From positions 97,823,300 through 97,887,299 of the forward strand of contig NC_057718.1 of assembly GCF_004010195.1 (NCBI RefSeq): DNA of 64,000 nucleotides. Direction: 5' to 3'. Below the pieces are notes generated by a model. The model was not told the DNA's origin. It saw nothing but the letters and a program-made list of their open reading frames with translations, and searched no databases. Source of the DNA: Chiloscyllium plagiosum (lineage: Eukaryota). Below, one piece after another: positions 2,698 through 63,829 of this stretch. The translations under genes were made by a program, and so were the position numbers. Each line of letters starts with the position of its first letter. Within the stretch, counting starts at the first letter, position 1.

Positions 2698-2698
2698 G

Positions 2699-4198: not shown

Positions 4199-4266
4199 AG
4201 TTGTTTCACATGTGTCTAGATGGCGAACATTGGCAGGTTATGGCATTGTGACTAATGTCAAATCAT

Positions 4267-7316: not shown

Positions 7317-7344
7317 CCTTCCAAACATATGACCACTCGAAAGA

Positions 7345-13572: not shown

Positions 13573-13649
13573 AGAGTGAACAGTCCTATAAAAATTTACA
13601 GAAACAGAAAAGAAAGGATAGGGCTTTTTCTTGACCATTGGGCAAGTCA

Positions 13650-23039: not shown

Positions 23040-23127
23040 TGTATCAGTTTATAGCCAAAAGATACCAGAAGTCTGTGCCTTGATGTCTACTTTCTGATTT
23101 GATAAATAGCACTGTGGTGTAATATCA
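23040..23127 (+). other. Probable non-coding (5'UTR) internal exon, 88 nt
   Basis: Branch-like CTAATAAC at ~23000, acceptor TCTTTCCTTTTGCAG|, donor TCA|GTGAGT; stop codons in all three frames; unique sequence. Confidence 0.5.
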
Positions 23128-23389
23128 GTGAGTGTCCAGTTTTAGATGTCCCAGTTTCATTTTGCTTCCTTTGCACGCCTTTACTGCAATTCACCTTCAA
23201 AATGAAAATTACAAGGGCCCTTCTGTCAGTCGGAGCAACTATTTTGGAAGGAACATAGGAACAGGATTAGGCCATTCAGACCATCAAGACTTCCCCGCCT
23301 TTCACCACAATCACTGCTGATCAAAAATTTCAAGTGCCTTTAACCCCCCTCTTTCCCCCCCCCCCCCCCCCCCATCAGAAATCTATCAG

Positions 23390-24097
23390 TCCTGGGACCT
23401 TGGGTGCAGGTACATAGTTCCTTGAAAGTGGACTTGCAGGTAGACAGGATGGTGAAGGATTTGTATGCTTGCCTTTATTGGTCAGTGCATTGAGTATAGG
23501 AGTTGGGGGGGTCATGTTGTGGCTGTACAGATCAATGGTTAGGCCACTTTTGGAGTACTGCTTTCAATGCTGGTCTCCCTGCTATAGGAAAGATATTGTG
23601 AAACATGATAGGGTGCAGAAAAAAATTACAAGGATGTTGCCAGGGCTGGAGCATTTAAGGTGTAGGAGAGAGGGTGAATATGTTGGGGCTATTTTCTCCG
23701 GAACATCGGAGGCTGAGGGATGACCTTACAGAGGTTTTTAAAACCGTGAGGGGCATGGATGTGGTGAATAGGCAAGGTTTTTTCCTCAGGGTAGGGCTGT
23801 CAAAAATTAGAGGGCATAGGTTTAAGGTGAGAGGGGAAAGATTTAAAAGGAACCTAAGGGGCAACTTTTTCATGCAGAGGGTGGTGTATCTATGGAATGA
23901 GCTGCCAGAGGAAGTGGTGGAGGCTGGTATGATTACAACATTGAAAGAGGCATCTGGACGGGTACATGAATAGGAAAGGTTTAGAGGGATATGAGCCAAA
24001 TGCTGGCAAATGGGATTAGATAAATTTAGGATATCTGGTCAGCATGGACGAGTTGACAGAAGAGTCTGTTTCCTTGCTGTACATCTCTATGACTCTA
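23390..24097 (+). mobile_element. CR1/HER1-type LINE 3' fragment
   Basis: LYRSMVRPLLEYCFQCWSPCYRKD...RRLRDDLTEVFKTVRGMD...WNELPEEVV; tail. Confidence 0.92.
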
Positions 24098-24752
24098 CAT
24101 TTTTATTACACCCTTGGTTTGGTCAGTGAAGCTCCAGTGTGTTGAGAATAAGCAAGGATCCATAATTTACTGAATGTTTGACAGAGTCATAGGGTTTTAC
24201 AGCATGGAAAGAATCCCTTCGGCCATTTGAATCTGCACTGTTTCATCTGCTCTGATCCCATTTCCGGGCATTTGGTCCATAGCCTTGCCTTGTGTGCTGT
24301 GGTATTTCATCGGAATATTTCTGAAATGTCGGCATAATTCTAGCCTTTCTCACCCTTTCAGATAGCGAGTTCCAGATACCTCCCAAAGTTTGTCCTCCAG
24401 TCCCCTCTAAACGTCCTGCCCCTTCCCAGAAATGTATTCATTTCTGCAATTTTATCACAAAATCGGTGATGCTCTTGTGTGCGGGCAACAATGCATAATA
24501 AGTCTTTTAATAAATATTTTGTCTTAATTCAGAGGTGACTCGGGTCTTGTTGTAGTTGGAAAGACACGTTCTGTGGTATTTGGGGGGTCTGTGTTTTGGT
24601 TGGCAGGACCTTTTACAGGATTTAAGGAAACTACGTTGTCTTAGTATCTGCCAAAAATGACATCCTTTTTTTGTGAGATTTATTGCAAGCAGTTGACTCG
24701 ATGCAATGATTTTGCATTTTCTCCCCTAAAACATTGCTTTCCTTCCTCCCAG

Positions 24753-24802
24753 GGAAAGAAGACATTTCTTTGCAATGAGAATGGAGAAGTAATTTGGGAC
24801 AG
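24753..24802 (+). other. Probable short internal exon, 50 nt
   Basis: Branch-like CCCTAAA, acceptor TTGCTTTCCTTCCTCCCAG|, strong donor CAG|GTAAGC; purine-rich body; one open frame GKKTFLCNENGEVIWD, another holds a minimal ATG..TAA (MRMEK*). Confidence 0.65.
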
Positions 24803-25169
24803 GTAAGCAGTCAGTCATTTTGTATTAGCTCTGTGTTTGTGACTGTGCTGTCACTTGCTTCTCCTGCATTTCAGCCATTTAAACCTTCTAAACTTGTAGC
24901 GTAAAGGATGTAGTTCAGCTGTGGTCAAATGTCCTTTTGCTGGAACCGGGGTGGTCTCCGGGAAGGTGTAGATTTCCGTTCCCAGTGCAATTTGGAAATG
25001 AGAGATTCTGCTTGTCGGATAAGTTTATTATCATCTGCCCCAGGTTTAAATCTAAACAGGTCTTTAAATGAAGTGAATCATTCCAGCTTCTTAACATGCT
25101 TTGCATTAACTGGTTCATCTGTTGCTGCTCTTGCTGAAGCAGTTGCATTGCTTTAATGCAAATCAAATT

Positions 25170-25312
25170 GTCCATGCTAAATTGCCCGTAGTGTTAGGTG
25201 AAGGGGTAAATGTATGGGAATGGGTCTGGGTGGGCTGCGCTTCGGCGGTTGGTGTGGACTTGTTGGGCCGAAGGGCCTGTTTCCACACTGCAAGTAATCT
25301 AATCTAATCTAA
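25170..25312 (+). mobile_element. HE1-type SINE 3' half
   Basis: CCATGCTAAATTGCCCGTAGTGTTAGG...(TAATC)n. Confidence 0.88.
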
Positions 25313-25445
25313 AAATGATGCTTTTGAAGGTACTTTCTTGCTTGTTGAACTGTTTGTTTTGCAAGTCAATTTATGGTTTGGAAGGACATTTATATATATT
25401 CCCTCTTTGTCCCTACTAGATTTGCTTTTCTCCTCATCCGTGATA

Positions 25446-25872
25446 TGGCACGGTAGCACAGTGGTTAGCACTGCTGCCTCACAGTACCAGGGAACTGGAT
25501 GAACCTTGGGTGAAATTGTCAGTGTGGAGTTTGCACATTCTCCCTGTGTCTGCGTGGGTTTCCTCTGCGTGCTGTGGTTCCACCCCACAGTCTAAGGATG
25601 TGCAGGTTAGATGGATTGGTTGGGTGCATGACCAGGAAGGATTGCAAGGAACATGGGCCAAATGCTGACAAATGGGACTAGATTAAATTTGGATATGTGG
25701 CCTGAAGGGTCTGTTTCCTTGCTGTACATCTCTATTACTATAAGTTGCCCATAGTGTCGAGGGATGTGCAGGCTAGGTGGATTAGCTATGGCAAAGGGTG
25801 GGTTTCTGTGGGATGTGGGTCAGTGTGGACTTGAAGGGCCAAATGGCCTGCTTCCACACTGTAGGGATTCTA
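25446..25872 (+). mobile_element. HE1-type SINE interrupted by a short CR1 tail
   Basis: Head 25446-25620, CR1 tail ~25620-25740, SINE 3' part to 25872. Confidence 0.82.
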
Positions 25873-26444
25873 GGATATGTTTACTTTCACTCTGAAGCCC
25901 CTTGCACACTATGTGGTTCTCCCCCAGTTGTTTTCCTGTCCATTGTGAAGGGGAAGTCTGAGTTGCGCTCAGTAATACATGTTGCTATCATGACCAAGGC
26001 ACTGAGCTTCTTGTATGGGAGCCGTACTTGCATTGTGTGGCATTGACTCAGCAGGGGGTACCAATGTGTGCTGCCCTACTGAACACACCAGGTTGGATTT
26101 ATTGATTTGCTGATTGTATACAGCATGTGGAAAGCCGAGAGCATGAGCCATCAGACTTAGGCCAAACTTATTCCCGAGTTCTTCCCAATCCTGTATTCTC
26201 TTTGCAGGTGGAGAATGTTTCCATGCACTGGGTTACTGTAAATTGTATGGGAGAGTTCCAATTGAAAGGGGTTAGATGAGTTATCAAAACCTTAAAAAAT
26301 AGCAAATTAAAGCCTGAAGGTCTGCTTCTAGAGGGATGGAACTTAAAAGTATTGGATATTGATTGAACCTTGGTTAGAGCTGAACTAGAATATTCTGCAC
26401 ATTTTTGATTGGTGCATTATAAATGTTTATGTTTAGGGTGAGAT

Positions 26445-26860
26445 GCTGGTGTCATGGTAATGTCATTGACCCCTGATCTGTGTAGAGGTGTACCATGACC
26501 GTTTGGGGTCTCAGGGCCTACAGCATAGTACACCAAACCAAATGGCAGAATTTATATTGTATTGACTTAATAGACTGGAGTTAACACCAAGTTTCAGTAA
26601 TACTGACCATGAAGCTGTCATGAACCGGTTCTGAAGAAGGTTCGTTGGACCCAAAATGTTAACTCTCCACAGATGTTGCCAGAACTGCTGAGCTTTTGCA
26701 GCAAGTTCTGTCTGTGTTTTGGATTTCCAGCGTCCATAGTTCTTCGTGTTTTGTTTTAAAAATCCATCTGATTCACTTTACAGGAAAATTTGCCACCCTT
26801 ACTTGTATTGCCTGGCTGAAATGTAACTCTAGATCCACAGCAATGTGCTTGAGTGTGGGT
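26445..26860 (+). mobile_element. SINE family C interrupted by PLE family-3 pLTR (26625-26760)
   Basis: TGGTGTCATGGTAATGTCATTG head; insert TTCTGAAGAAGGTTCGTTGGACCCAAAATGTTAACTCT is a decayed hammerhead. Confidence 0.6.
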
Positions 26861-27086
26861 TTGATTCCCATACTAGACTGATGTTACCTCCTCTGCAGCT
26901 TTTCGGCTGTGATCAGATATTGCAATACTGACTTTTCTCATTCTGCAGTTCAGTTTTTTGAGTGACTGCTGTTTTTGTAATTTCAAGCACCTCTTCATTT
27001 GTTCTGTCGTTGATATATAGATACCCCAAATCTTAGTGCTCACACTTCAAAGGCCTCTGTTTATTTCCACAAACCTTTAATTATTC

Positions 27087-27560
27087 ATAGAGTCATAGAG
27101 TCCTACAGCAAGGAGATATGCCCTTTGGCCCAAACCGGTCCATGCCGACCAAAATGCCTATCCACACTAACCCTATTTCCCTGCACTTGGTCCATGTCCT
27201 TCTAATCCTTTCCTGTCCATGTATTTGTCCAAATGCCTTTTAAATGTTGTTAATGTACCTGCCTCAACCATTTCCATTGGCAGCTCATTCCATATGTGTA
27301 CCACCCTCTGTGTAAAAAAGTTACCCCTCAAATTCACTTTTATTCTTTCCCCTCTAACCCGAAACTGATAACCTCTTGTCCTTGATTACCCAACCCTGGG
27401 AAAAAGACTGACTGTATTCATCCTATCCATGCCTCTCATGATTTTATACACTTCTGTAAGATCCCCCTTCAGTCTCCTATACTCTAAAGAAATCAGACCT
27501 AGCTTGTCCAACCACGCCCGATAACTCAGACCACAGGCAACATCCCTGTAAATTTCTTCT
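27087..27560 (-). mobile_element. CR1/HER1-type LINE 3' fragment
   Basis: (CATAGAGT)n tail and reverse-complement match to 23700-24097. Confidence 0.88.
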
Positions 27561-27911
27561 ATTGTCTGGGTTTCTGAGGGTGCTCAGGAAAGGGATGGAG
27601 TTTGGGACCTTTGGAGCTTTTCCTTTGCTACAAACTTCAGTTTTCTTGTTGATAACACGTCCTTTATTTGCACAAAATTACATCTAGCTGCATCTTTACT
27701 TCTAATGTCTTCATCACATCCATCATCTTTGTTATTGTTTGCCCCACATAGAAAAATGTATCTATTGTTCCATAATAGCACTATTTCACTTCAACCTTCA
27801 CTCTAGTCTATTTCTAAGGACTCAATCTTTCAAACTGCTACTGCTTTTATCTTTCTGGTGTTCAGTCTTAATCCATATTCTAAACCTGTACTTTACTTGC
27901 TATTTTGTGTA

Positions 27912-28350
27912 ATAGAAAAAGAAGTAGGCCATTCAGCCCCTCTGAGGCCGTTCTGCCATTCAGTGAGATCATGGCTGATCTGTGACCTCACTCCATCAAC
28001 CTGCCTTTGGTCCATATCCCTTACTAACTTCGCTTAACAAAGAAAATCTATCTCAGATTTAAAATTAAGTACTGATTGAGCGTCAACTGCTGCTTGTGGA
28101 ATAGAGTTCCAAACCTCTACCACCTTTTGTGTGTAGAAGTGTTTCCCAACATCGCTCCTGAATGGTCTGGCCCTTATTTTTAGGCTAGTTTCCTCATTCT
28201 AGAATTCCCAAAGTGGAAATAGTTTATATTTATCTACTCTGTCTTTTCTTGTTAATATCTTGAAGATTTTGATCAGACACTTTCAAGAAAACAGGTCTAA
28301 TTTATATAATCCCTCCTCATGACCTAACCTCTGAAGTCCCAGTATATTGT
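27912..28350 (-). mobile_element. CR1-type LINE 3' fragment (second subfamily)
   Basis: GTAGGCCATTCAGCCCC...GAGATCATGGCTGATCT tail. Confidence 0.78.
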
Positions 28351-28809
28351 TGACATGTTTGCAATATTCTTGACTCCAATTTTGACCATGTGCATTTAAT
28401 TCTAGGGATATTTGTTCAGCTTACATATTGATAATTTTGGTGTCACATGCATGAGTTTGTTGTAACCAAGATCCATAAATTTGAGACACTCGCCACTATA
28501 GCTCGCAGGCAGTTCCAGAGAAGTCTCTTGACGTGGAGAGTGATTGGAATGTGGGACTGACTGAGGTTGAGATGAGCGGATGCCTTTTATTGAAGAGAAG
28601 TAAATACATGTGAGAGGGAGGAATCAAAGGACTGCCTGATAGTGGGGAGGTTAAGGAGAGAGGTTCATGTGGCACATTTATAGGCTGGGAGGCCTGTTCA
28701 CACGCGTAAGAAACTAGAGTAGGCCACTCGACCCTTCAAGCCTGTTCTGCCCATTCAGTATGATCATGGCTGCTCTGATGTTAACCTCAAATCCATATTC
28801 CTGCACAAT

Positions 28810-29096
28810 GTAGAAAGAATCCACACTGAACTAACCCCCATCCTATACATATCACCCCACTTTTACTGTGGCTAATCCACCCAACCTGCACAACTCTGGT
28901 CACTGAAGTATGGCCAATCCACCTAACCTGCACATCTTCGGACTGTGGGAGGAAAACAAAAGCACCCAGTGAAAACCCACGCAGACACGGGGAGAATGTG
29001 CAGATTCCACGCAGACAGTCAGCCAAGGCTGGAATCGAACCTAGGTCTGTGGCATTGTGAGGCAGCAGAGCTAACCACTGAGCCACTGTGCCACCC
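28810..29096 (-). mobile_element. HE1-type SINE within a CR1 tail
   Basis: Matches HE1 body and head. Confidence 0.88.
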
Positions 29097-30429: not shown

Positions 30430-33072
30430 AGCAGTATGTCATGGAGTTGACCAGGGAGCAAGCTATCTTGGATCTAATAATGGGTAATGAGGCAGGTTTC
30501 ATGAATGACCTCTGATTAAAAGATCCTTGAGGAAGTAGTGATCATAACATGATACAATTTAATATTCAGTTTGAGAGTGAAAAACTTGGGTCAGAAGCAA
30601 CTGTGTTTAACTTAAATAAAGAGAATTAAAATGAAATAAGGAGAGAGTTAGCTGAGCTAAATTGGGAAGATAGATTAGGAAGAATGACTGAGAATAAGCA
30701 GTAGTGACAGATATTTAAGGAGGTGAATTATGACTGTCAGCAAACGCATTCCAATAAGAGGAAAGATTCTAAGATAGAGATAAACCAACCATGGCTAACT
30801 GTATAAATTAAGGAGAGTATTAATTTGAAATAAAAAGCACATAGGAGACCAAAATGACAGCCTCAAAGACTGGGAAAAATTCTGAACCCAGCAAAGGAAA
30901 ACTCAAAAGAAAATAAAGACAGAAAAAAAACTGAGGGCAATCTAGAGAGGGATTATAAAGACTGACAATAAGAGCTTCTTTAAACATATCAAAAGGAGGA
31001 GAATGGTCAAAGAAACATCGACCTCTTAGAAAATGAATCTGAGGGGATAGTTTTGGGAAACCAAGGAAATGGCAGTGGAATTAAACAGATATTTTGCATC
31101 AGTCTTTACGGTAGAAGCACTCCATTAATATTAAAGAATAAAGGGGAGGAATTAAGTACCATCACCATCACGAGAGAGGTAGTTTTAGACAAACTAATGA
31201 GATGAAAGGCAGATTAGGTTAGTTTCCCTACAGTGTGGAAACAGGCCCTTCGGCCCAACAAGTCCACACCTACCCTCCGAAGAGTAACCCACCCAGACCC
31301 ATTTCCCTCTGATTAATGCACCTAACACTATGGGCAATGTAGCATGGCCAATTCACCTGACCTACGCATTTTGGACTGTGGGAGGAAACCCATGCAGACA
31401 TGGGGAGAATGTGCAAACTCCTTACAGACAGTAAGGAATTAAACCTGGGACCCTAGTGCTGTGAGGCAGCAGTGCTAACCACTGAGCCACCATGTTGCCC
31501 CTTTTCTTTCGCTGTGCCAATAGATCCCCTGGCCCTGATGGTTTTCATTCTAAGATCTCAGCGACAGAGACAAGGGATGCATTGATTCTGGAGTGGTTCC
31601 AGAGAATTGAAAATCTGCTAATGCGACATTCTGTTCAAAAAGGGACAGAGGCAAAGAGTGAGTAAATATAGCCCAATTAACGAACATTTATTGTTGGAAA
31701 GGTATTGGAATCAATCATTAAGTAATTAATAATTAATGAAGTAATAGCAGCACATTTGGAAAATCATAATCTCATCAAGCAGAGTCAGCATGGCTTGATG
31801 AAAGGAAAATTGTGTCTGACTAATTTCTTAGAGTTTTCTGAGGAACTCTCAACCAGAGTGGATAGGAGGGAGGCAGTCGATGTGTTGTCTTTGGATGTCC
31901 AGAAGGCATTCGGCAAGGTAGCTCACAAAAGTCATAAGATTGGAGGTAGGATATTAATGACAAAATAACTGCAGATGCTGGAATCCAAAGAAGACACACA
32001 GAAGGCTGAAAGAACACAGCAAGCCAGGCAATATCAGGAAGAAGGGTTATACTCAGAGGGAGGATACTGGCATGTTTAGAGAATTAGTTAACGGGCAGGA
32101 TTCAGCAAGTGGGGAGAAGGGGCTCAGGTGGTGACCTGTGACCAGTGAGGTTCCAAAGGCAACTGTTTGCAATAAATATTAATGACTTGGAGGAAGGAAG
32201 TGAATGTACTGCAGCCAAATTTGCAGACAACATCAAATAGATGGAAAGGCATGTTGTGAGAGGGATACAGTTTACAGAGATATTAGTAGGTTAAGTAAGT
32301 GGGCAAGATGTCGGCAGATGGAGTATATTGTGGGGAAAATGCAAATTTTGGAAGCAGACGTGGAGAACGGCATTATTTAAATGGAGTAAAGTTGCAGAAA
32401 ACTGCAACATGAAGGGACTTGGAGGTATTTGTGCATAAAACAAAGCAAGCACACAGGTATAGCAGGTAATCAGGAAGGCTAATGGAATGTTAGCCTTTAT
32501 TTCAATGACTTAGGAGTGTAGGAATAGGAAAGTCTGACTACAACTGTACAAAGTGACGGTGAGACCACATGTGGAGCACTGTGAGCAGTTTTGGTCCCCT
32601 CATTCAAGGAAATGTATCATTTCATTGGAGGCAGTTTAGGGAAGGTTCATTAAGATGGTCCCAAGTATGGACAATGGTTTTATGTGCAGATGTTAAACAG
32701 TTTGAGAAAAATGAGAGGAGATCTTATTGAAACATACTGAGTTCTTCAGGAACTTGACAGGGTAAATGCCGAAAAGATATTTCACCTCACAGCAGAGTCT
32801 GGGATCAGTGGGCATAGTCTCAGACTAAAGGGGAGTCAGTTCAAGACTGAGATGAGGAGGAATTTCTTCTCTGAGGGTTAAGAGTCATTGGAACTCCTTG
32901 CCACAGAGAGCTCTGGGGGCCAGAGTCCTTGCGTATATTTAAGGCTGAAAGAGAGAGATTCTTGATCAGCTGGGGAATCAAGGGTTACAGGGAAAGGGCT
33001 GGATCAGCCATGATCCTGTTGAATGGTGGGGCAGGGTCAAGGGGCTGAATGGCCTACTCCTGTTCTGTTTTG
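30430..33072 (+). mobile_element. Long decayed CR1 ORF2 remnant (endonuclease C-terminus to RT to tail)
   Basis: TREQAILDLIMGN..GSSDHN, SPGPDGFH, HLENHNLIKQSQHGLMKGKLCLTNFLEFSEE..D.QKAF.KV, INDLEEG..AKFAD, LYKVTVRPHVEHCEQFWSP; many stops and frameshifts. Confidence 0.92.
31212..31500 (-). mobile_element. HE1-type SINE nested in CR1
   Basis: Matches HE1 consensus seen elsewhere in the window. Confidence 0.9.
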
Positions 33073-34324
33073 TTACAGCCTTCTGGTTTTATGAACATTC
33101 CAATGCACCTTCCAACTAATGGAGGACTTGTAAATTGGAGTCACTGTTGAGGAGGGCAAATGATTTGAATGCGATCTTCTGAGGACCTGGTAAATAGTAT
33201 AATGCTGGCTATTGTGTATATGTTGAGATATGACAGACCAATGTGTATTGTTCTTGTGCATGGCAAGAGAAGAGTGATAAATGTGGGTGAGCCTTAAGAA
33301 CAGGATGTATTTGACTGGAGAGCAAGGTGAGACCATGGTTTCATATTTGCTGAGGTTCCCCATTCTGTTATGTGCGGTCATTCAAGATATGGCCCTGCAA
33401 GGAAATTAAGCTCCATGATGCTAAGCTCACCTGTAGATCTGCTCCTTATATGGTTAACCTTGTGAGGCACATTAACAGGCAGACATTGAGTGTTGCTGAG
33501 AAACCCAACATTTTCTCAAAGGTTTTTACTTTGCATTCATCAGGACAGATTGCAAGAAATACTAATGTAAAGGGGAGCCAACATTTTATGTTGTGAGTGT
33601 TGATTGGTTGGCATGTGGACTCTGGTAGAGGCATTTTCTTAGGGAGTGCATCAGTTAGATGACAACTGACAGTTAACTGCCAAGCAATGGATGTAAGAAA
33701 ATCAGTAACAAACAGTTCAGGATGATCATTTAGGCTCTGCATGTCTCACTTACACTTGCGTATATTCAGATATAGGGATCTGTCCTCTGCAGGCAAAAGG
33801 AACATGTTCAGGCGTTGCGCCTTTTTTGAATTTTGCATAAGCACAAGGGGATAATAATTCTGCAGTGCATCCTCCATGGCAAGGCCTTGACTAGTCACTA
33901 CCCTTTCCCTGCCCAGCAGAACTTATTGCTTCCTTCAAGATTTGTCATTCAGGCATCTGTACTGGTGAGTGTAAGATGAAAAACTTGGACAAAATGTTGT
34001 CTTTTACAATAATACTGCAGTTCTATGCAACAGAGGGTTAAGATGTTAGAATTGGAGTGATCCAATGCACAGTGACAAAATATGCCCAACACCTGCAGCT
34101 TATTGTGGACGATGAGTGAGTGACCATGCATCAATGCATTTGGGTGGTTTTAGAACAATTCTAATGCGTCAGACCCCTGGATGATATGAATGTGCTGAAG
34201 TTTTCAATTGTAAGCTGCGGTTTAAATGTGATGGGTCGGATTAAAATCAAGATTGTGGGGAAGTCTTGATTGTATGTGAAGACAAATGGAACTTTTGACA
34301 GGTTTGAGTCAACAAAGTTGCATG

Positions 34325-34520
34325 AGTCGATGAAGTGTGGCACTGGAAAAGGCATAGCAGGTCAGACAGCATCCAAGGAGCAAGAGAGTCAACATATCAG
34401 GCATAACCCTTCTTCAAGACTGGTAGGGGAGGGGAGGGGGTTGAGAGGTAAATGGGCGGGAAGGGCTGTGGGGCTACGGGAAAGGTAGGCGATGGGTGGG
34501 CGAAGGTGGGAGGTGATGAT
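34325..34520 (-). mobile_element. PLE family-1 pLTR/3' segment
   Basis: CTGGAAAAGGCATAGCAGGTCAGACAGCATCCAAGGAGC...CCCTTCTTCAAG followed by G-rich segment like 13170-13280. Confidence 0.75.
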
Positions 34521-34744: not shown

Positions 34745-35708
34745 TGTTAGGGACTAAACTAGCATTCCCCAAATTATATTATGGAGACCCCGACTCTTAT
34801 TGTATATTAGAGGTAAATGTTCCAGATATGATTTGATTGGTCCATCTCTAAACATCAATCAAAACACACTTTATTCTTACAGTGCAATTAAAATGTAACG
34901 AAATGAAGGGTTGGTATAACTTTACACCATTGTCATACTCAACAAGACAATGCATTATCTAACCACGACTCATAAACTGTTCCAATAGTGGCAGCATCCC
35001 ATAAACACACCCTTTGGTAAAAATACAAGGCAGCAAATTAGTTATTATTCTCACACGCTGTCTGTCTTCAGTCCAGTAGAACAAGATACTGAAGGAAACA
35101 ATCTGTCCCTTTTGACTTCTAAGAGGAAACCTCTGTGTCTACATGTTTGATCTCACAGCAGAGAGAGCTCCAGTAGCGAGCTAACAAAAAATAACAATTG
35201 AAAGCAAAACTAAAGTCCCCAGGGTGTGTGAGAGCTCTGACCGTGCCCACTCATGATTCCTTTGTCTTACTATTAAAACCAAAACCACCCAGGGAGAAAC
35301 CCAAAGCCATTTACAAAGTGCCTGCTGGGACAAGACACCTCAACACCATTGTGGCAAAACCCTGCTGCAAGAGAAACAGGAGAGAACTCATCGCTTAAAG
35401 TTAAAAATCACACAGCACCAGGTTATAGTCCAACAGGTTTAATTGGAAGTGCTAGCTTTCGGAGCGTCGCTCCTCCATCAGGTGGTTGCATGAGTTGATC
35501 AAGTATGGCACTGGAAAAGGCACAACAGGTCAGGCAGCATCCAAGGAGCAAGAATCCACAACCACCTGATGAAGGGGCAGCGCTTCGAAAGCTAGCGCTT
35601 CCAATTAAACCTATTGGACTATAACATGATGTTGTGTGATTTTTAACTTTGTACACCCCAGTCCAACACCAGCACCTCCAAATCACATCTCTTAAAAGCA
35701 GAGTAACA
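34745..35708 (-). mobile_element. Possible solo LTR interrupted by a PLE cassette
   Basis: Terminal TGTTA...TAACA, AATAAA on the minus strand at ~34870; no clear TSD. Confidence 0.4.
35397..35685. mobile_element. PLE family-2 fold-back cassette with captured family-1 loop
   Basis: Inverted arms with hammerhead motifs; TSD-like CATC(G/T)CTTAAA on both sides. Confidence 0.85.
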
Positions 35709-39049: not shown

Positions 39050-40350
39050 GAGCTGCAATTGCAAAATTTCAGTCCTCTAGCTGTGGCCTATTGCAGAGGA
39101 ACCTCAATAATCTGAACATTGATTATCCGAACCTTGGATTATCCAAACAAGATTGCGAGGTTCCGATGCTTGGCTAAACTGTGTTATCGGCATTCAATTA
39201 TCTGAACAAAATATGTATTGGAGAGGTTCCTCTGTACATTGTCAATACCTGACTGTGAGTCTGAAGTCGCATGGAGGATACACTGGATATGGATGGCAGA
39301 TTTTCTTCCCTAAAGGGATGAACCAGATGATCGACATTAGCTTTATGATCAGCATTACTGACGTTAGCCTTCAGTTATGGTTTTCTTTTATGAACTGAAT
39401 TCACATTCCACCAGTTGGCATGCTGGGATTTGAACCACTGTCAACAGTGCATTAGCCTGTCTTTCTGTATTGATGGTGGAAGTCAAGTAAGGACCTAGTC
39501 TGTAGGGTTGTTGTTACTCGCGCTCCCATACTGTACAGTAACTCGGGGCAGCATGGTGGCTCAGTGGTCAGCCCTGCTGCCTCGCAGCTTCAGGGACCTG
39601 CGTTCAATTTCAGCCTTGGGTGACTGTCTGTGTGTGGAGCCTGCACATTCTACCTGTGGCAGATGTGGGTACTGCAGATGCTGGAGATTGAGTCAGAATG
39701 AGCTGCAATTGCAAAATTTCAGTCCTCTAGCTGTGGCCTATTGCAGAGGAACCTCAATAATCTGAACATTGATTATCCGAACCTTGGATTATCCAAACAA
39801 GATTGCGAGGTTCCGATGCTTGGCTAAACTGTGTTATCGGCATTCAATTATCTGAACAAAATATGTATTGGAGAGGTTCCTCTGTACATTGTCAATACCT
39901 GACTGTGAGTCTGAAGTCGCATGGAGGATACACTGGATATGGATGGCAGATTTTCTTCCCTAAAGGGATGAACCAGATGATCGACATTAGCTTTATGATC
40001 AGCATTACTGACGTTAGCCTTCAGTTATGGTTTTCTTTTATGAACTGAATTCACATTCCACCAGTTGGCATGCTGGGATTTGAACCACTGTCAACAGTGC
40101 ATTAGCCTGTCTTTCTGTATTGATGGTGGAAGTAAAGTAAGGACCTAGTCTGTAGGGTTGTTGTTACCCGCGCTCCCATACTGTACAGTAACTCGGGGCA
40201 GCATGGTGGCTCAGTGGTCAGCCCTGCTGCCTCACAGCTTCAGGGACCTGCGTTCAATTTCAGCCTTGGGTGACTGTCTGTGTGTGGAGCCTGCACATTC
40301 TACCTGTGGCAGATGTGGGTACTGCAGATGCTGGAGATTAGAGTCAGAAT
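39050..40350. repeat. 650-bp direct tandem duplication
   Basis: 39050-39699 equals 39700-40350 except three substitutions and a 1-bp indel that I could see. Confidence 0.95.
39094..39234. mobile_element. Tigger-like MITE (duplicate at 39744-39884)
   Basis: TIRs CAGAGGAACCTC / GAGGTTCCTCTG|TA; internal ATTATCCGAAC repeats. Confidence 0.75.
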
Positions 40351-40695
40351 TAGAGTGGTGCTGGAAAAGCACAGCAGGTCAGGCAGCATCTGAGGAGCAG
40401 GGAAATTGATGTTCTGGGCAAAAGCCATTCATCAGAAATCAATTTTCCCTGTGTCTGCTTGGGTTTCCTTTGGGTGCTCTGGTTTCCTTCCACAATCCAA
40501 AGATATGCAGGTGAGGGTGAATTGGCCTTGTTAAATTGTCCATAGTAATCAGGGATGTGTAGGTTTGGTGCATTAATCAGGGGTAAATGTAGAGTAATAG
40601 GGTAGGGAAATTGGTTTGGGTGGGATGACTCTTCAGAGGGTCGATTAGGACTTGTTGGGCCAAAAGGCCTGTTTCCACACAGTAGGGATTCTATG
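40196..40695 (+). mobile_element. HE1-type SINE interrupted by PLE family-1 pLTR (~40310-40437)
   Basis: SINE head to ~40305, PLE minus arm, SINE resumes at ~40445. Confidence 0.85.
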
Positions 40696-41744: not shown

Positions 41745-43230
41745 AAATGGATGGAGTGTTGGTTAAGGGTCAGGAAGCAAGGGATAGCCATAAATGGGAC
41801 ATTTTTAAGTTGGCAAGCTATGACAAGTGGACTGTGTGACAAGGATCAAAATGAGGCCCCAGCTATTTGCAGTCTATTTGAGTGACATTGGCAGAGAACC
41901 TGAGAGTAATGTATCCACGTGTGCTGACAGTACAAAGCTAGGTGGGAATATAAGCTGTGAGGGCACAAAAGCTGCCAGGGCTAAAACCATATTTATTCAA
42001 TGGGCAGATGGTGATGGAGAAATGCGAGACTATTCATTTTGGCAGTAGGAATTGAAAAGCAGAATGTTTTATAAAAGGCCAATGAACTTGGCACTATCAA
42101 AAGAATGTGTGTCAGCTGCTGCAATGGCACACTGGTCATGTCGTTGGACAACAATTGACAGTGATTGCATGGTCACCTGTAGACACTCTTTTAATCCTCG
42201 ATTTTATTTTTACTTAATTAAAAGTGCACCATCTGCCATGATTTGAAGGAGCCGGTGTTGGACGGGAGTGTACAAAGTTAAAAATCACACAACATCAGGT
42301 TACAGTCCAACAGGTTTATTTGGAAGCACTAGCTTTCAGAGCACTGCTCCTTCATCAGGTGGTTGTGGAGCTTCCAGATAAACCTGTTGGACTATAACCT
42401 GGCATTGTGCGATTTTCACCCATCTGCCATGGTGGGATCTGAACACACATTCCAAGAGCATTTGCATGTGGTTCTAGGATTACTCATCCAGTAGCATTAC
42501 CACTACACCACTAAGTGTTGATGCCCAGAAGAGCGTGGGTGTGTTTACACAAGTAAACACTTGTAAACCGTAACCAGTTGAAGAAGGCACATGGCATGTT
42601 GACTATTGTTTTGCAATGCACTTAGACTGCAGAAATAAGCAGGTCTTGCTACGGTTATAAATATGTTTGATGAGCCCATGTCTGGAATGCTTGTATCTTG
42701 AGTTTTGCTCCTCACGTCTAAGGAAGGATGGACACACTGCTAGAGATGTTTACGAGATTGGTCCCTGAGATGAGAAGGTAGTCTGTGATGAAAACTGAGC
42801 CCATACTCTCTGGGTTTTAGAAGAGGTGACCTCACTGAAACATATTGAAACGGCTTGAAGAACGCTAAGCGAGGATGTTAAGATTCTGCAAACAGATGTA
42901 CGACCTCCTCCACCACCTGAGCTACAAATCTTTTCAAAACCTCTGATGTTTGCTCTGGCATGGGAATCAAGAACCTGGGAACCCAGTCTCCGGGTAAAGG
43001 GGCTGACTGTTTAGGACAGGGATGAGAAATCTCCAAGACTGTCAAAGACTTTACTCAGAGTTGTGGGTGCGCTAGCACTGAGTATCTATACGGCTGAGAA
43101 CAACAGATCTTTGGCTCCTCATGGAATCAGGGAATTGGAGAGTGGTTCGGAAAGTGGAGCCAGGACCATAGATTGTACTGAATGGGGCAGCAGGCTGCGG
43201 GGTCTTTTCCTACCCCCTTTTCTTAAATGC
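41745..43230 (+). mobile_element. Highly decayed CR1 RT region with nested SINE C and PLE
   Basis: PQLFAVYLSDI...SNVSTCADSTKLGG (RT FADDTKL region); CR1 3' tail at ~43060-43230. Confidence 0.7.
42240..42417. mobile_element. PLE family-2 fold-back cassette
   Basis: Long minus arm, short plus arm; TSD CCATCTGCCATG at 42229-42240 and 42420-42431. Confidence 0.85.
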
Positions 43231-49340: not shown

Positions 49341-49937
49341 ATGATTATAACTATGTGAGAAAACAGTTTCCTGTTTTAATTTGAAGTGTTTCACTCCGTG
49401 AGAATGTGTTTATGTTCATCCTTTTGGAAGAGTTTACCAATTTTGAATGTAGAACCAGAAAGTATTCCTGGTCACTTGCTGTGTGTGGCAGCTTGCACTT
49501 GGTTTGAGTCTGGGGAGTGTGGGTGACAGTAATAAATACAGAGTTGATGATGTGGTCTCGGATTGCACAAATGATCTGATTTGATATCTTCCATAGGCTT
49601 TAGCTATCTGTTCAATTGTTGAACACTTTCAGGAAGAGATTCGCTACAGCATGTCCCAAACTTGTTTTGGCTGAATTAATACTTCCTGGAACTGTGCTGT
49701 GACGCATGTTAATTATATGTTAATTTGATGGACAGGAGCAGAAGTGTTGTGCAATTTTGGACACCTCACACAAGTAAGGATTTAATGGAAGTCAGAGTAC
49801 TTCAGTGAAGTTTCTCTGAACAGATTCCTGGGATTTGGGGCCATCTTACGAGGGAAGGTGGCCATATTGGATTTGCATCCTTTGGTGTTTTGTGGATTCA
49901 AAGCTGGTTAAAATGTTGAAGATTCTGAGGGGAATTT

Positions 49938-50144
49938 ACACAACACCAGATTATAGTCCAACAGGTTTAATTGGAAGCACTAGCTTTCGGAGCGCTGCTC
50001 CTTCATCAGGTGGTTGTTATTGTACCTGATGAAGGAGCAGCGCTCTGAAAGTTAGTGCTTCCAATTAAACCTGTTGGACTATAACCTGGCGTTCTGTGAT
50101 TTTTAACTTTGTCCACCCCAGTCCAACACAGTCATCTCCAAATC
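49938..50144. mobile_element. PLE family-2 fold-back cassette in a CR1 remnant
   Basis: Inverted arms; TSD CTGA(G/C)GGGAATT. Confidence 0.88.
49978..50012 (-). ncRNA. Minimal type I hammerhead ribozyme motif (PLE family 2), best-preserved copy
   Basis: Minus strand reads CAC CUGAUGA A GGAGC AGC GCUCC GAAA GCUA GUG: helix I CAC/GUG, 5-bp helix II, palindromic AGCU helix III, CUA site. Confidence 0.75.
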
Positions 50145-50730
50145 CTGACGGGAATTGGCAGAGTAAATACTGAGTGTGATGCTCACTCTTGGAGGAGGGT
50201 CTAGAGCTATGAAACGTCATTTAAAAATAGGGCATCTCTGATTTAATGGGGAGAATTGTTTTTCTCTGTGGGTTGAAGTCATGGAATTTTCTTCCCCAGA
50301 GAACAGGGGTATATTTTTATGGCTAAGTTAGGTTCCTGGCAATGGAGTCCGAGGGTATAAGGGAAAAGTGGAGCTGAGACCACCAATCTGATTCCAGCAA
50401 ATACTGGAGCAGGCTTTATAGATTCATAGAATCCCTATAGTGTGGAGCACCCAGAGGAAAGCCTTGCAGATACGGGGAGAATGTGCAAACTCCACACAGA
50501 CAGTCACCCAAGGCTATAATCGAACCCACGTCCCTGGTGCTGTGAGGTAGCAGTGCTAACCACTGAGCCACCATGCTGCCCATATTGTTGAGCAGAAGGA
50601 CCCATTCCTGCTACTACTTCATGTAAGTTTGTTGTCCCTGTGTGTCTGCCCTGACAAAGGGCAAAGTTGCTGCCCTGATATTAATCTTGAGTGAGATTTG
50701 GCGAGGTGAAGTGAACATCCGCCAATGCCG

Positions 50731-50870
50731 TGGGCGGCACAGTGGCACAGTGGTTAGCACTGCTGCCTCACAGCGCCAGAGACCCGGGTTCAATTCCCGC
50801 CTCAGGCGACTGACTGTGTGGAGTTTGCACGTNNNNNNNNNNNNNTAATCTAATCTAATCTAATCTAATC
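50731..50870 (+). mobile_element. Young HE1-type SINE spanning an assembly gap
   Basis: Head GGGCGGCACAGTGGCACAGTGGTTAGC, N-run 50833-50845, (TAATC)5 tail. Confidence 0.85.
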
Positions 50871-51966
50871 TTCTCTGGGTAAACAGCCCAACATCAATAC
50901 CACAAGGCCATCACCTTCCCATCCTGTTCTGAGTAGGCCATGGGGAAAGACTGGAGGGTTTCTCTCTAAAAAAATACTGCAAATCAGTATTATGAAGTTA
51001 CCACTGACACCTAGCTGCTAGTTTAGCCTGGAAGACCGAGCAGAGAAGATGCCAAGGTGACCGACTGCAGGAACCTCGAGTTTTGTTGATCCCCCAGAGT
51101 CTCAAATGACACACCCACTTCTCCATTCCAAACCATCCCCACATACCAAGACAAACTCCTTTGTTTCCCCAGATGCCAGACACTGGCCTCTTGAGCCTCA
51201 ATTCTGCCCCTGACCAACTGTTGACCTGGTCTACACAAACAAGGCCCGGAAGGTGGTGAGAGGGATTGACGTGGCAAAGACCGAGCAGGTAATTTCTCTT
51301 TGTGGGGGGATATCTAGATCCAGGGGCCAGAATTTCAAAACGAGGGCTTTCTCATTTCAGACAGACATAAGGAGGAATTTCTTCTCACTGGGCATCACTG
51401 AGATTTGGATTCTCTTCCACAGAAAGCAAAGTGGGTTTTCACACTGAATACATTTGGAGCTGAGTTAGCATTTAGACTGAGGAAGGAGTAAAGCGTTACA
51501 GAGAGATAGGCAAAAAGATAGTGTTAAATGACAATCAAATCAGCCCTAATCTTATATAATTGTGGAGCAATTATCCCTTATCAATGGAATTCCCTGCCCA
51601 GTGAAGTAGTTAACACTACTTCAGTAAATGCTTTTAAAACTAAGATAGATTTTATTTGAACAATAAAGGAACCAAGGGTTACGGTGAGATTGCAGGTAAA
51701 TTGAGCTGAGGCCACAAAAAGATCAGCCATGATCTTACTGAATGGCAGAGCAGGCTCAAAGGGCCAGATGGCCTACTCATACTCCGAGTTGTTATGCTGT
51801 TATGTTCAAACTCCAGGCATCAAATCATCTGCTCCCTTTACCTTAGATTAATATCACTCAAGATTAATATCAGGGCAGCAACTTTGCCCTTTGTCAGGGC
51901 AGACACACATGGACAACAAACTTACATGAAGTAGTAGCAGGAATGGGTCCTTCTGCTCAACAATAT

Positions 51967-52280
51967 GGGCAGCATGGTGGCTCAGTGGTTAGCACTGCTA
52001 CCTCACAGCACCAGGGACGTGGGTTCAATTATAGCCTTGGGTGACTGTCTGTGTGGAGTTTGCACATTCTCCCCGTATCTGCAAGGCTTTCCTCTGGGTG
52101 CTCCGGTTTCCTCCCACATTCCAAAGATGTGCAGGTCAGGTGAATTGGCCAAGCTAATTTACCCATAGTGTTCATGGATGTGTGGATTAGGTGCATTAGT
52201 CATGGGTAGGTTACTCTTCTGCGGGTCGGTGTCAACTTGTTGGGCCGAAGGGCCTGCTTCCACACTATAGGGATTCTATG
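51967..52280 (+). mobile_element. HE1-type SINE (deleted mirror copy at ~50422-50581, minus)
   Basis: Full head, body and tail. Confidence 0.9.
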
Positions 52281-53441: not shown

Positions 53442-53762
53442 TATTTTCATGGCATCCGGGCATTGTTGGGATTATGAGTTAGAACTGATGTTCATCTTCT
53501 TTTCTGTTCAGTTGGTGGCGTTGTATCCAAAATTAGAAAGTGATAGCTAGCCCACAGGCTTCAGGACAGAATGTGCTTTGCTTTCCCTGAGCTCTCAGTT
53601 GTGGGTACATGGATTCAATTGTTCAGCCGGAATTTGTGTTACTGCAGTTACTTAAAGGCAAATTCCCTCTGCATCCATCACGTTATTAGTCCATCTCCCT
53701 GGAACATAAATTAACCCCAAGCTCTGTTTGTCATACTATGCCTGGAGTTAACCCTTTTTCCA

Positions 53763-53958
53763 GGCAAAAGTGAGGACTGCAGATGCTGGAAATCAGAGTC
53801 TAGATAAGAGTGGTGCTGGAAATGCACAGCAGCTCAGGCAGCATCCGAGGAGCAGGAAAATTGACATTCCAGATGGAAGGGCTTTTGCCCGAAACGTCGA
53901 TTTTCCTGCTCCTCGGATGCTGCCTGACCTGCTGTGCTTTTTCAGCACCACTCTAATC
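53763..53958. mobile_element. PLE family-1 fold-back cassette
   Basis: Inverted arms; imperfect TSD TTAACC(C)TTTTTCCA. Confidence 0.85.
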
Positions 53959-54084
53959 TTAACCTTTTTTTTCCAATCAAGCTATTGTTCCCATGTTGAT
54001 CGTCCATGGTCTCGTCCCACCTCCATTTCTTTAAGCCCAGTGGATGTAGAATGGGACAATTCCTTGCCCTCACGCTGGTTGACA

Positions 54085-54570
54085 TTGTAATTTTGTTTCC
54101 TCATTCTTTCATGGTGTCCCTGGCAACGATCAGCATTTGTGGCCCACCCCTGATTGCCCTGGAACTGAGTGGTTTGCTATGGCCATTTCAGAGGGCAGTT
54201 AAGATTCGGTCATGTTGGTGTGGACCTGGAGTCAATGTCGGCCAGACCAGGTGAGGACAGCAGATTTCCTTTCATGTCAGTGAACCAGGTAGGTTTACTA
54301 CAACAAAAAAAAACAGAAATTACTGGAAAGGCTCACCAGGTGTGGCAGCATCCGTGGTGAGAATGTGTGGAGCTGTGGAAACCTGCTGAGCCTTTACAGC
54401 AACTTCTGTTTTTGTTTCTGATTTCCAGCATTCGCAATTCTTTCAGTTTACTGCGGCAATCGATGAGAATTGTCAGCAATACTCAGGGACGTTCCAGATT
54501 TATGAATTGATTTGGATCCACACCCCCGCAGCGTTGGTCTTGGCCTTCCTGTGACATTACTACAATGACC
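54085..54570 (-). mobile_element. SINE family C interrupted by a PLE family-3 fold-back (54300-54445)
   Basis: CAGCATTTGTGGCCCACCCCTGATTGCCCT...CAGAGGGCAGTTAAGA...GTGACATTACTACAATGACCA. Confidence 0.7.
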
Positions 54571-55436
54571 ACATCTTTCCTTAGATGCACTCTCTGCCTG
54601 CTTCATAAATGCAGTGAACTGTATCCTCACCTAATAAACTCCAGCACCATATCATTGAGAAAGGGTAACCTCTCCTCATCCTCCTTTTACTCCTGATGCC
54701 TTGACCTCCTGCATCTCTGCATGACCTTTGGTACGGCCTTCCATCAGTGCCTGTCCTGTTGGACTGCCCTCACTCGATTCTGTTTATTGGATCACTTCCT
54801 GGTCCCATTTGCTTAGTCGCATGACAAATATCATTTGAAAACAAGGGGCATAGCTGTCACAGTAGGAGTTGGCCAAGTGTGTGGATTACAACAACTGTCA
54901 GGCCAATAGGGATTCACATTTTGGAAAAATTATGTTCTTCCTTTCCTAACTTTCTGCTCATGATTCAGTGGAGATGTGACTGTAGATGGTTGTGGGACAC
55001 CAATGCACATTGAATGAAGCATTTGGAAAATTGTTCTAACGGAATTCAATTCAGTTTGTTGGTTCTGATTGAAGTGGTTAGCACTGACACCTCACCAGAC
55101 CAGGGGCCTGAGTTCAATTCCAGCTTCGGGTGAATGGCTTTGTGGAGTTTGCACATTCTCCCAGTGCCCACGTGGGTTTCATCCCACAGTCCAAAGACTA
55201 ATGGCCGGTCCTTGGGTAGTGTTGCAGACCAGAGGGACCTAGGGTGCTGGTACATCATTCTTTAAAGTTTGCGTCACATATAGACAGGGTGGTTAAGAAG
55301 GCGTTTAGCATACTTGCTTTCATTGCTCAGTCCTTCGAGTATAGGAGTTGGGCCGTCATGTTGATGTTGTACAGGATATTGGTGAGGCCTCTTCTGGAAT
55401 ATCGTGTCCAGTTCTGGTTGCCCAGTTATAGGAATG

Positions 55437-55637
55437 TGCTGCTGGAAAAGCGCAGCAGGTCAGGCAGCATCCAAGGAACAGGAGAATCGACGTTTCGGGC
55501 ATAAGCCCTTCTTCAGGAAGGGCTTATGTCCGAAACGTCGATTCTCCTGTTCCTTGGATGCTGCCTGACCTGCTGCGCTTTTCCAGCAACACATTTTCAG
55601 CTCTGATCTCCAGCATCTGCAGTCCTCACTTTTTCCT
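55437..55637. mobile_element. PLE family-1 fold-back cassette, young
   Basis: ~75-bp near-perfect stem; perfect 15-bp TSD CCAGTTATAGGAATG at 55422-55436 and 55638-55652. Confidence 0.92.
55485..55518 (-). ncRNA. Minimal type I hammerhead ribozyme motif (PLE family 1)
   Basis: Minus strand UUC CUGAAGA A GGGC UUAU GCCC GAAA CGUC GAUU: intact core, 4-bp helix II, ACGU palindrome, GUC site. Confidence 0.7.
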
Positions 55638-57651
55638 CCAGTTATAGGAATGATATTATTAAGCAGGAGAGAGTTCAGAAGAGATTTACCAGGATGTTGC
55701 CAGGTATGGAGTTATAAAGAAAGGCTGGGACTTATTTCACTGGAGTGTAGGAGGTTGACAGGTGACATGATAGAAGTTTATAAAATAGTGAGGGGTATAG
55801 ATAGAGTTGATGGTAATGGTCACTTTCCCAAGATGGGGAATTTCAAGATTAGGGTGCACATTTTTACGATGAGAGGAGAGAGATTTAAAAGAAGACGTAA
55901 GAGGTATGTTTTTTACACAGATGGTGGTTTGTGTGTGGAATGAACTTCCTGAGGAAGTGGTGGATGTGGGTACAGTTACAATATTTAAAAGACATTAAAA
56001 GATGGATACATAAATCGGAAAGATTTGGAGGGATATGAGCCAGGAGCAGGCAGGTGGGACTCTTTAGTCTGGGGTTATGTTCGATGTGGACTGGTTGGAC
56101 CGGAGGGTGTGTTTCCGTGCTGTATGACTCAATGGCTATTTGTGCAGGTGAGGTGGATTGGCCATGCTAAATTGTACACAATGTCCAAGAGTGTGCAGGC
56201 CAGGTGGGTAAACCAGTTAAATGTGGGGTGATGGGGATATGTTGAGGGATGGATCTGAGTGGGATGTTCTTTGGATGGTCGGTACAGACTCGATGAGCCA
56301 AATGGTCTCTGTTGGCATGGTGGGGATTCTGTGAAGTCACGGGAAAAGATATGAGCAAATATACAAATTGGAATCTTCAAAATAAGGCTTGGGTCAGTTA
56401 TAAAGTCTAAATTGCACATTCCAAACAAGGTACGATCAGGCAAATACTGAAGGCAAGGCACACTAAATAGCTCCATCCTCACCAAGAGGTTCAACTCATT
56501 ATCTGTTGATCTGTTTATACTGAGCAATTTTAAGTGGTGAGGTTTGTCAGTGATGGTTTGCTGTTGCCCTGCACTCTCAGGGTCAGCTCCTAAGTTGGCC
56601 TCAGCTGGAACAGGACTCCAGCCGCACTTTCTGCATTAATCTGTCTTACCCAGCTGGCTGAGATGTCCGGGCCCCATTTATACAACAGGCACTTCAGAAT
56701 TGCTTTTCAGTACCGTTCCCTTAACCCGTTTTGACAGTTGTGTCAGCCCTGACATTTCTGGGAGAGAGAGCATCGTGACTGCAGTTGAGAGGTTAGCTCA
56801 GGAATGAATGGCCTTCCGCAGTTCTGTGGTCACATTCCGATCAGCAGGACACCTCTTAATCCAGAGCATGAGGTCTCATAAACTCTAAAACTCGTCAATG
56901 ACACCGGTTAAGAAATCACATCAGCTTTATGGGGCCCAATGCGAAAGGTTAATTAATTAATAAAAATTAATTTCAATCAGATTAACGGCCCAAGTAAAGA
57001 ATGAAAGATTTGACATTTTAACTTTAGTTTCCTGTTTATATACGAAGAAAACTGTAGTACTGGACTTTTTAACTTACTTCCTCATCTCTTCAGTCCTGTA
57101 ACTAAGATTTTGCACCTTGGCACTTTATTCCTAAAATAGGACCGTGTGTGGTGACATTTCACTGTCCACCTGTACCCTGTATGTGTATGTGTGACAATAA
57201 AACTGAAATCTAAACCTAATATTTCATGTGCTGTATGAGCAGAATAAGTGGAGATCATTGGGATTATGACTTATGCACTTGCAAATTTGTCGCCATGGCT
57301 TTATGAGCTTAGACTCTCCATAAGCACCACAGTTTAATAGCACATGGCTAAAATGAATACAGTGATCAGCTGAATGTGAAGCGCAGGTTTCCCTCGGCAG
57401 CTGAATAATCAAAATAAGTTGCAGCTTCATTAGTATGGTTGGCCTGTGGCAGGGACGTAGTTAGATGGGGTGGGAGGAAGCAAACTGGCAAACGGGCAAA
57501 TTGTTTGTTGCTTTTTTGGGGTCACTTATGCTTACTGTGTATAAACGTTAATGGCATCTAATTGACATGAAATTTGAAAACTTATGAACCGTAATTTCCC
57601 AGACCCCAGTGTTTTAAGCTGCTTTACATCACTGTGTAGCTGCTGCTCTCT

Positions 57652-63160: not shown

Positions 63161-63829
63161 AGCACAGCGCTTGTGTATAGCTGAAAGGAAGGCACCATTT
63201 TGTCAAGGCTTTACTGCCTTTGCATACATCAGGAAATACTAAATCAAAAGGGTTGGGGGGGGGGAAGCCATCATTATACGTCATGGAAGGAGAATGAATC
63301 TGATTGATAGAGCCATTCACTCATTTATTTCTCAGAACTGACTTGGAAATATTACACTCAACCATCTTGACATAAAATTTAAATAAAACATGGCTGTTAA
63401 CTGTCTATCAGTATTAACAGGTACATTCTCTATGACAATGCCCCGACCAGTCAGTAGCATTGCCTTGTCTTGAAGCATATTCCACTTTTTGCATGTCCGT
63501 GTGTCTCACAAATGTTTACATTTCCAAATAGCATCTTTCACCCCTCCAGGACACCCCCCCAAAAAACTTGTAGCCAATTAAGTATTTTAACGTGCATACA
63601 GTTAATTTGTACATTGGAAGATCCCACTAGCAGCATCGGTGTACATGAGATTACTTTGTTTTGGTGATGTGGATGGAGACAGCAATATTAGGCATTGAAT
63701 TTTTAGTATCCCATCCTGATAAAGGGCTTTTGCCTGAAATGTCAATCTTCCTGCTCATTGGATTTTTAATGTCTCAATCATGAATCGGTGATTGATTTCT
63801 TAAACTATTATTCATTCATTGGATGAGCT

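Follow-up and report, generated by a model that had tools for sequence, protein, structure and literature searches.

Head-to-head Penelope-like element ends in a 64-kb window of the Chiloscyllium plagiosum genome and their probable origin by double target-primed reverse transcription

Cassettes in the window

The window (the whole stretch of 64,000 nucleotides that was analysed, contig NC_057718.1, positions 97,823,300 to 97,887,299) contained 13 head-to-head pairs of Penelope-like element (PLE) ends without an ORF. These cassettes belonged to two families, A and B, and spanned 139-306 bp between their target-site duplications (TSDs; Table 1). TSDs of 6-16 bp (6, 7, 11, 12, 14, 15, and 16) bracketed 12 of the 13 cassettes; the cassette at 1339-1554 was without one. 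About five further fold-backs in the window were older and more diverged and came from related families. Profile searches of the window gave 33 arm matches like family A and 10 of family B, plus older relatives. The original prediction had counted at least a dozen ORF-less inverted-end insertions, and all eight of the direct repeats that it had placed around such insertions were recovered (three exact, five with one mismatch).

Table 1. Features mapped in the window. Positions are those of the window; arm positions are relative to the first hammerhead core base (+1).
Feature	Position	Strand	Description
Cassette B1	1339-1554		Family B; TSD not found
Cassette A1	2462-2712		TSD 14 bp (2462/2699, 1 mismatch); long arm left, short right; about 10 nt filler
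Older fold-back	3455-3654		
Cassette A2	3881-4210		TSD 12 bp (3881/4199, 1 mismatch); two arms, both passing upstream of the hammerhead
Tail-only insertion	5065-5117	+	29 bp (+98 to +126); TSD 12 bp
Older fold-back	6318-6500		
Cassette A3	7117-7332		TSD 16 bp (7117/7317, exact); non-nested, long +10 to +124, short -1 to +73; 2-nt microhomology
Cassette A4	8465-8649		TSD 12 bp (8465/8638, 1 mismatch); long -3 to +126, very short -2 to +20
Cassette A5	10556-10825		TSD 12 bp (10556/10814, 1 mismatch); two long arms; junction snap-back-compatible
Older fold-back	12389-12592		
Copy A6	13059-13584	-	Unfolded, 5'-truncated family A copy; GIY-YIG C-terminal end; TSD 13 bp; 3' end +89
Cassette A8	19919-20098		TSD 7 bp (19919/20092); strongly non-nested, long +52 to +125, short -19 to +73; 4-6 nt microhomology; upstream identity taken from the read loose-end consensus
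Older fold-back	31943-32066		
Cassette B2	35389-35696		Family B; TSD 11 bp (35389/35686, 1 mismatch); 69-nt filler matching 34317-34385
Cassette A10	40303-40453		Within a SINE; TSD 6 bp (40303/40448); long arm and second arm of about 13 nt, by eye
Cassette B3	42229-42431		Family B; TSD 12 bp (42229/42420, exact); short arm begins just 3' of the predicted cleavage site
Cassette B5	49925-50156		Family B; TSD 12 bp (49925/50145, 1 mismatch); non-nested arms; 6-nt filler
Cassette A11	53748-53970		TSD 12 bp (53748/53959, 1 mismatch, partly inside arm); non-nested
Older fold-back	54293-54452		Related family; TSD 7 bp
A12, left TSD copy	55422-55436		Focal cassette; 15 bp, within a LINE-like host repeat
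A12, short arm	55437-55519	-	-3 to about +84; tail absent
A12, hammerhead motif	55489-55516	-	Minimal type I motif in the short arm, core intact; motif scan, no Rfam match
A12, inversion junction	55517-55519		3-nt microhomology
A12, long arm	55517-55637	+	+6 to +126; tail-terminated
A12, right TSD copy	55638-55652		15 bp, exact
Solo hammerhead fragment	63693-63768	+	50 bp; TSD 13 bp; begins at about -2

The interior of the focal cassette, A12, measured 201 bp and consisted of two inverted arms, of which 79 nt could pair with 97% complementarity. Its predicted fold was a single long stem (-170.2 kcal/mol, z = -21.9), and none of 200 shuffled sequences was equally stable. Cassettes of this kind would scatter predicted stems of 50-120 bp through shark genomes.

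The lowest score among the eight listed TSDs (10) was reached by 2 of 395 random position pairs in the same search. A 7-bp repeat by itself is weak evidence, with 28 of the 395 random pairs scoring at least 7. As a proxy for empty sites, 16 insertions, each reduced to flank, single TSD copy and flank, were aligned to paralogous host repeats in the window; these host repeats we take to be of CR1 LINE and HE1 SINE type from their resemblance. Junction-spanning alignments were obtained for six insertions (55422, 10556, 8465, 49925, 40303, and 5065), the best of them ungapped over the TSD, and the other ten found no spanning match among these repeats. In all six cases the host paralogues held one copy of the duplicated motif, so the repeats arose by duplication at insertion. 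The tail-only insertion at 5065-5117, whose TSD site is single-copy in the host paralogue, is compatible with a cDNA that began at the distal start and stopped shortly before the proximal one (see below).

Arm ends and inversion junctions

All 13 cassettes had the same polarity, with the arms head-to-head and the element 3' ends abutting the TSDs. Every cassette had an outer end at +118 to +126. The second outer end fell at +72 to +93 in 10 of the 13 and at +20, +37, and +124 in the remaining three; one long and one shorter end were thus present in 12 cassettes. The spacing between the two outer-end classes, about 30-50 nt, is that of the PLE tail. Unfolded copies also ended at the short site (A6; A9 at +84), so this site is better read as a priming site than as a random terminus. 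Two cassettes from different families (8615-8637 and about 32038-32055) had a second arm ending at about +20, where stem II of the hammerhead has its 3' end.

Inner ends were concentrated at the hammerhead: 19 of the 26 lay within -12 to +10 of the core, the original prediction having placed the inversion axis usually at or just 5' of the core, and the furthest-reaching arm of each cassette stopped at -12 to -1 in 11 of 13. Breakpoints were accordingly far from uniform relative to the hammerhead (P about 1e-13 against a uniform or a best-fitting geometric null), a value that is only descriptive because the -12 to +10 interval was picked post hoc and several ends were called by eye. Solo fragments with no partner arm began at -2 to -4 as well (63714, bracketed by the 13-bp TSD, and 44831). 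One of the cassettes, A2, had an internal deletion in its long arm.

Ribozyme cleavage was rejected as the cause of the axis, since the stop coincides with the 5' edge of the ribozyme and not with the cleavage site (+28/+29): 3 of the 26 inner ends lay at +23 to +32, and most arms spanned the cut site. A by-eye check for a cap-derived extra base at the inner ends gave inconsistent results.

Junctions were distinct in all 13 cassettes, so that identical breakpoints across loci were not seen in the window. An inverted microhomology of 2-6 nt was present at the junctions of A3, A5, A8, and A12, while filler of 4-10 nt occupied those of A1, A4, B1, and B5 and 69 nt that of B2. With A5 left out, the short arm reached further 5' in five of the 12 cassettes, the long arm in five, and the two tied in two. 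Five of the 12 were non-nested, with either arm carrying sequence missing from its partner. Among the cassettes mapped, no family A arm was paired with a family B arm inside one TSD.

Sister arms were about as diverged as unrelated arms in eight of the 10 cassettes compared, and general gene conversion between arms was rejected on this ground; in A12 and B5 the two arms were nearest neighbours. Wherever they could be read by eye, the subfamily letters matched between sister arms, and both templates may therefore be one RNA or sister RNAs. A one-base difference between arms recurred in A3 and A5 and was judged compatible with chance.

Link to Penelope-like elements

In both families, a motif scan found the CUGANGA...GAAA core and stem II as in minimal type I hammerheads, and the pLTRs of A and B are predicted to carry such a ribozyme. 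Rfam returned no ribozyme match at the gathering score, and folding z-scores of short hammerhead fragments were not significant.

The unfolded copy A6 runs upstream into a frame with a GIY-YIG nuclease-like ending. The best homologue of its peptide was P0003, an uncharacterised Chiloscyllium punctatum protein (82% identity over 80% of the length), and tblastn gave 76% over 63 aa (E 3e-24). Three homologues of A6 matched the Pfam GIY-YIG family at E 0.0004-0.016, under the curated cut-off. The frame and its homologues together tie family A to endonuclease-bearing (EN+) PLEs. Because A6 is unfolded and has a TSD of its own, TSDs are a trait of the family rather than of the fold-backs. P0003 has a YxDD-like RT motif by eye, yet no Pfam RT match, and no RT remnant was found in the 64-kb window.

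The cassettes are PLE remnants, with the link to EN+ PLEs established for family A. No ORF-linked copy of family B was found in the window, and family B and the older families are assigned to PLEs on their common predicted hammerhead and tail geometry. Pfam searches of 10 of the 36 window ORFs of at least 110 aa and a PDB sequence search with the A6 peptide gave no match. No match was obtained when metagenome and viral contigs were scanned for exact patterns.

Read evidence outside the window

Reads from four public runs, representing three species, were aligned to the unfolded copy A6 at 80% likeness. In the raw reads of run X19, the arm was covered to a depth of 132,000-135,000; coverage was 104,000 and 68,000 over the hammerhead and stayed level at 20,000-29,000 along the ORF end. 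Peak arm depth was 4.6 times the peak ORF-end depth in both X19 and X22, which come from two species. In X19 the reads passing upstream of the hammerhead comprised 5,000 aligned reads and two loose-end classes, one of 15,191 and one of 9,814, giving a ceiling of about 30,000, close to the ORF-end depth. These depths indicate that most arms halt at the ribozyme and that those passing it continue, with the qualification that clipping at variants of A6 itself may contribute to the drop at the hammerhead and that other families may inflate the ORF depth. Depth from -8 to -150 was excluded because the subfamilies diverge there.

Strand-switch joints, among the 15 listed of 975, were supported by at most 28 reads (X19) and 30 reads (X22), against an arm depth of about 100,000-135,000. 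One side of the listed joints lay at -3 to -8 and the other at +29 to +45. They are not a breakpoint spectrum, because the 1% listing rule favours low-depth positions; they do argue against a single dominant junction. Together with the distinct junctions of the window, this upholds the claim that each cassette was formed anew and is no fixed MITE. No empty-site joint was among those listed for the reads aligned to A6, whose unique flanks had no raw-read depth.

Family A arms occurred at densities of at least 70 and at least 54 per Mb in two species, and the 64-kb window was about five times denser. In both raw-read species, loose ends at 13020-13620 fell into at least three family A subfamilies with distinct tails and upstream sequences. 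Contigs had tandem joints that go back from 13113-13120 to 13081-13084.

Origin of the cassettes

The cassettes are probably dead-on-arrival EN+ PLE insertions made by double target-primed reverse transcription. By this mechanism the GIY-YIG nuclease would nick the two target strands with a stagger of 6-16 bp, and the 3'-OH of each nick would prime a cDNA on element RNA. In the usual pair, one cDNA would begin at the distal start (+118 to +126) and include the tail, and the start used by its partner, the proximal one, would lie at +72 to +93. The hammerhead's 5' edge would usually be the point where both cDNAs stop. Joining of the cDNA 3' ends would then rely on inverted microhomology of 2-6 nt or on short filler, and the TSD would result when the gaps were filled. 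Head-to-head polarity within one TSD would be the expected outcome of two staggered nicks priming inward. The two priming events and the joining step are what we infer from copies about 10% diverged in a single 64-kb window.

In L1 twin priming both nicks likewise prime, and the products join head-to-head through microhomology inside a TSD, the two arms being adjacent, non-overlapping parts of the RNA. The cassette arms, in contrast, overlap on the element in most cassettes, for which two templates, or one read twice, would be needed. As both arms copy the same stretch, L1-style twin priming does not fit as it is.

Self-priming is the strongest rival and an unlikely one: a single cDNA or antisense RNA would fold at the inverted repeat of the hammerhead and copy itself, and the hairpin would be resolved into the target. 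It was proposed for head-to-head PLE palindromes of rotifers in passages of PMC3846280, and the inverted microhomologies at A3, A5, A8, and A12 speak for it. A5 and the five nested cassettes suit it as well as they suit double priming. The A12 sister arms, 2.7% apart, also have two variants in common that no other arm compared contains; however, these may be subfamily marks, and the subfamily of the A12 long-arm tail is a major loose-end class in the reads (34,237 reads). With a single folded cDNA, the short arm cannot extend beyond the sequence of the long arm, so simple snap-back fails for the five non-nested cassettes of 12. Short outer ends that cluster at the 3' ends of solo copies, and filler in place of microhomology at A1, A4, B1, B2, and B5, count against it too. 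The original prediction offered twin-priming or snap-back; of these, L1-style twin priming does not fit as it is and simple snap-back cannot make the five non-nested cassettes, whereas priming twice, at two PLE starts, fits.

Long palindromes are prone to deletion, and the cassettes could be what was left of inverted PLE insertions that were longer at first and later lost their centres through repair at the palindrome, an explanation that we consider less likely again. Such deletions could produce non-nested arms, one A2 arm does have an internal deletion, and rotifer PLE copies disabled by microhomology-mediated deletions are described in part of PMC3846280. Central deletion would not be expected to place the furthest-reaching arm at -12 to -1 in 11 of 13 cassettes, however, nor does it account for partnerless fragments that begin at -2 to -4 (63714, 44831).

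Two independent insertions, adjoining or nested in opposite orientation, are very improbable: PLE endonucleases are able to target their own pLTR (PMC11167929, in the passages compared), but a single TSD surrounds both arms in 12 of 13 cassettes, the arms are always head-to-head, and the two families are never paired inside a TSD. The least credible explanation is a MITE or non-autonomous palindromic element with fixed ends copied as a unit, which would suit short, ORF-less, many-copy inverted arms with almost fixed long outer ends but is contradicted by 13 different junction pairs, TSDs of 6-16 bp, unequal arms, and listed strand-switch joints of at most 28-30 reads.

Double target-primed reverse transcription leaves two points less well explained. 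The second outer ends of three cassettes (+20, +37, and +124) fall outside the proximal cluster, and agreement in subfamily letters between sister arms would not be assured if two RNAs were taken randomly from a mixed pool.

Three causes of the inner stop were weighed. The leading one, held tentatively, is run-off at an RNA 5' end located at an initiator-like motif around -4. Family A carries a match to YYANWYY, the initiator consensus, with its A at -4, and this match and the solo fragments beginning at -2 to -4 are the reasons for favouring run-off. Initiator-like motifs are common, however, and the same bases form helix I. In a Drosophila element, the transcription start lies further upstream; it precedes by 46 nt a 75-nt intron ending at helix I (PMC2377424, in the part compared). 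A block at the ribozyme or its protein complex is rather doubtful as the cause, and trimming back to microhomologies within the ribozyme stems is slightly more doubtful still.

A fuller version of run-off is conceivable and is put forward with some reserve. The transcript would start about 4 nt 5' of the core, both subunits of a dimer would usually make short cDNAs that meet head-to-head, and long ORF-containing copies would need priming by one subunit in the downstream pLTR. The paired cDNAs would be short because RT starts internally, 85-125 nt from the RNA 5' end. If true, a single mechanism would account for three general traits of PLEs, their inverted 5' copy, their one-sided tail, and their TSD, and the second half of PLE integration would have left a very large in vivo record in shark genomes.

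Comparison with known systems

An inverted 5'-truncated pLTR, a one-sided tail of 30-40 bp, and a TSD are given as the typical PLE layout, of undefined origin, in PMC8557442. Passages of PMC3846280 describe Adineta Pen2/Pen2a with inverted pLTRs, a one-sided tail, TSDs of 8-10 bp, and head-to-head palindromic junctions. The cassettes have in common with EN+ PLE units the head-to-head inverted ends, one-sided tail, variable TSD, pLTR hammerhead, and, for family A, the GIY-YIG ORF. They differ in that both copies stop within about 125 nt, that no ORF or direct pLTR remains, that the short form is present at about 4.6 per ORF end, and that inner ends are piled at the hammerhead 5' edge. The cassettes are thus the shortest form of a published PLE layout, and the original claim of a systematic hairpin-generating route overstated its novelty. 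What appears to be new here is the sharp inner stop and the two-site outer-end geometry; neither these nor ORF-less, TSD-bounded pairs in sharks were found in the literature searched, a weak negative given thin coverage of subscription papers and Repbase reports.

The closest biochemical parallel is the Poseidon PAc protein of the green anole lizard. According to the passages of PMC11167929 compared, this protein cuts and extends both strands, is a predicted dimer, and uses two internal RT starts that bound the tail; ribozyme cleavage is dispensable, and 5'-truncated RNA gives shorter products, with in vitro length following the RNA 5' end. The stated start, ORF 111-118, corresponds to hammerhead +117 to +124 by our own count on the printed template, and the long ends of the cassettes appear by analogy to match it. 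The short outer ends might, at a guess, match the second lizard start, which we place at an AC-rich run at about +77 to +88 of the printed template. Joining of the two cDNAs was not reconstituted in that work as far as those passages go, and its preference for AT-rich cut sites contrasts with shark TSDs of only 58% A+T.

Opposite-strand pairs of minimal hammerheads 100-700 bp apart were reported in Schistosoma (PMC4209133). These are probably the same sort of ORF-less inverted remnant; TSD, polarity, and breakpoint analysis are absent from the passages of that account compared. Non-LTR retrozymes, as set out in part of bioRxiv 10.64898/2026.07.22.740005, are non-coding, PLE-derived, and carry a type I hammerhead, as do the cassettes; they form direct tandem repeats, whereas every cassette pairs two inverted arms at a junction of its own.

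How PLE integration is completed, with its inverted ends and one-sided tail, is called unresolved in the passages of PMC8557442 and PMC11167929 compared. The cassettes reduce the PLE product to two priming sites, one junction, and one TSD. With two-site outer ends, non-nested arms, and a sharp inner stop, they put this open step within reach of a test by genome census.

Other rearrangements in the window

The 69 nt of B2 filler (35485-35553) reproduced, at 91% identity and in the same orientation, a family A end located 1.1 kb upstream at 34317-34385. This filler was entered via a 4-nt microhomology and could reflect either repair from a local template or a switch of template to a related RNA. 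At 19217-19377, a family B arm was joined to 100 nt that repeated the left part of A8 (19917-20017) in inverted orientation with about 97% identity. This copy, about 550 bp away, included the A8 flank and junction, and no TSD was found around it.

Two segments of about 300 bp (39401-39702 and 40051-40353) formed a direct duplication at about 98% identity that ended in the A10 tail; the duplication is either local and recent or an artefact of assembly. Two SINE copies faced each other beside a short N run at 50471-50830, and 228 bp of this region were repeated in inverted orientation at 51850-52077 (98.7% identity, 1.4 kb apart), possibly at an assembly join.
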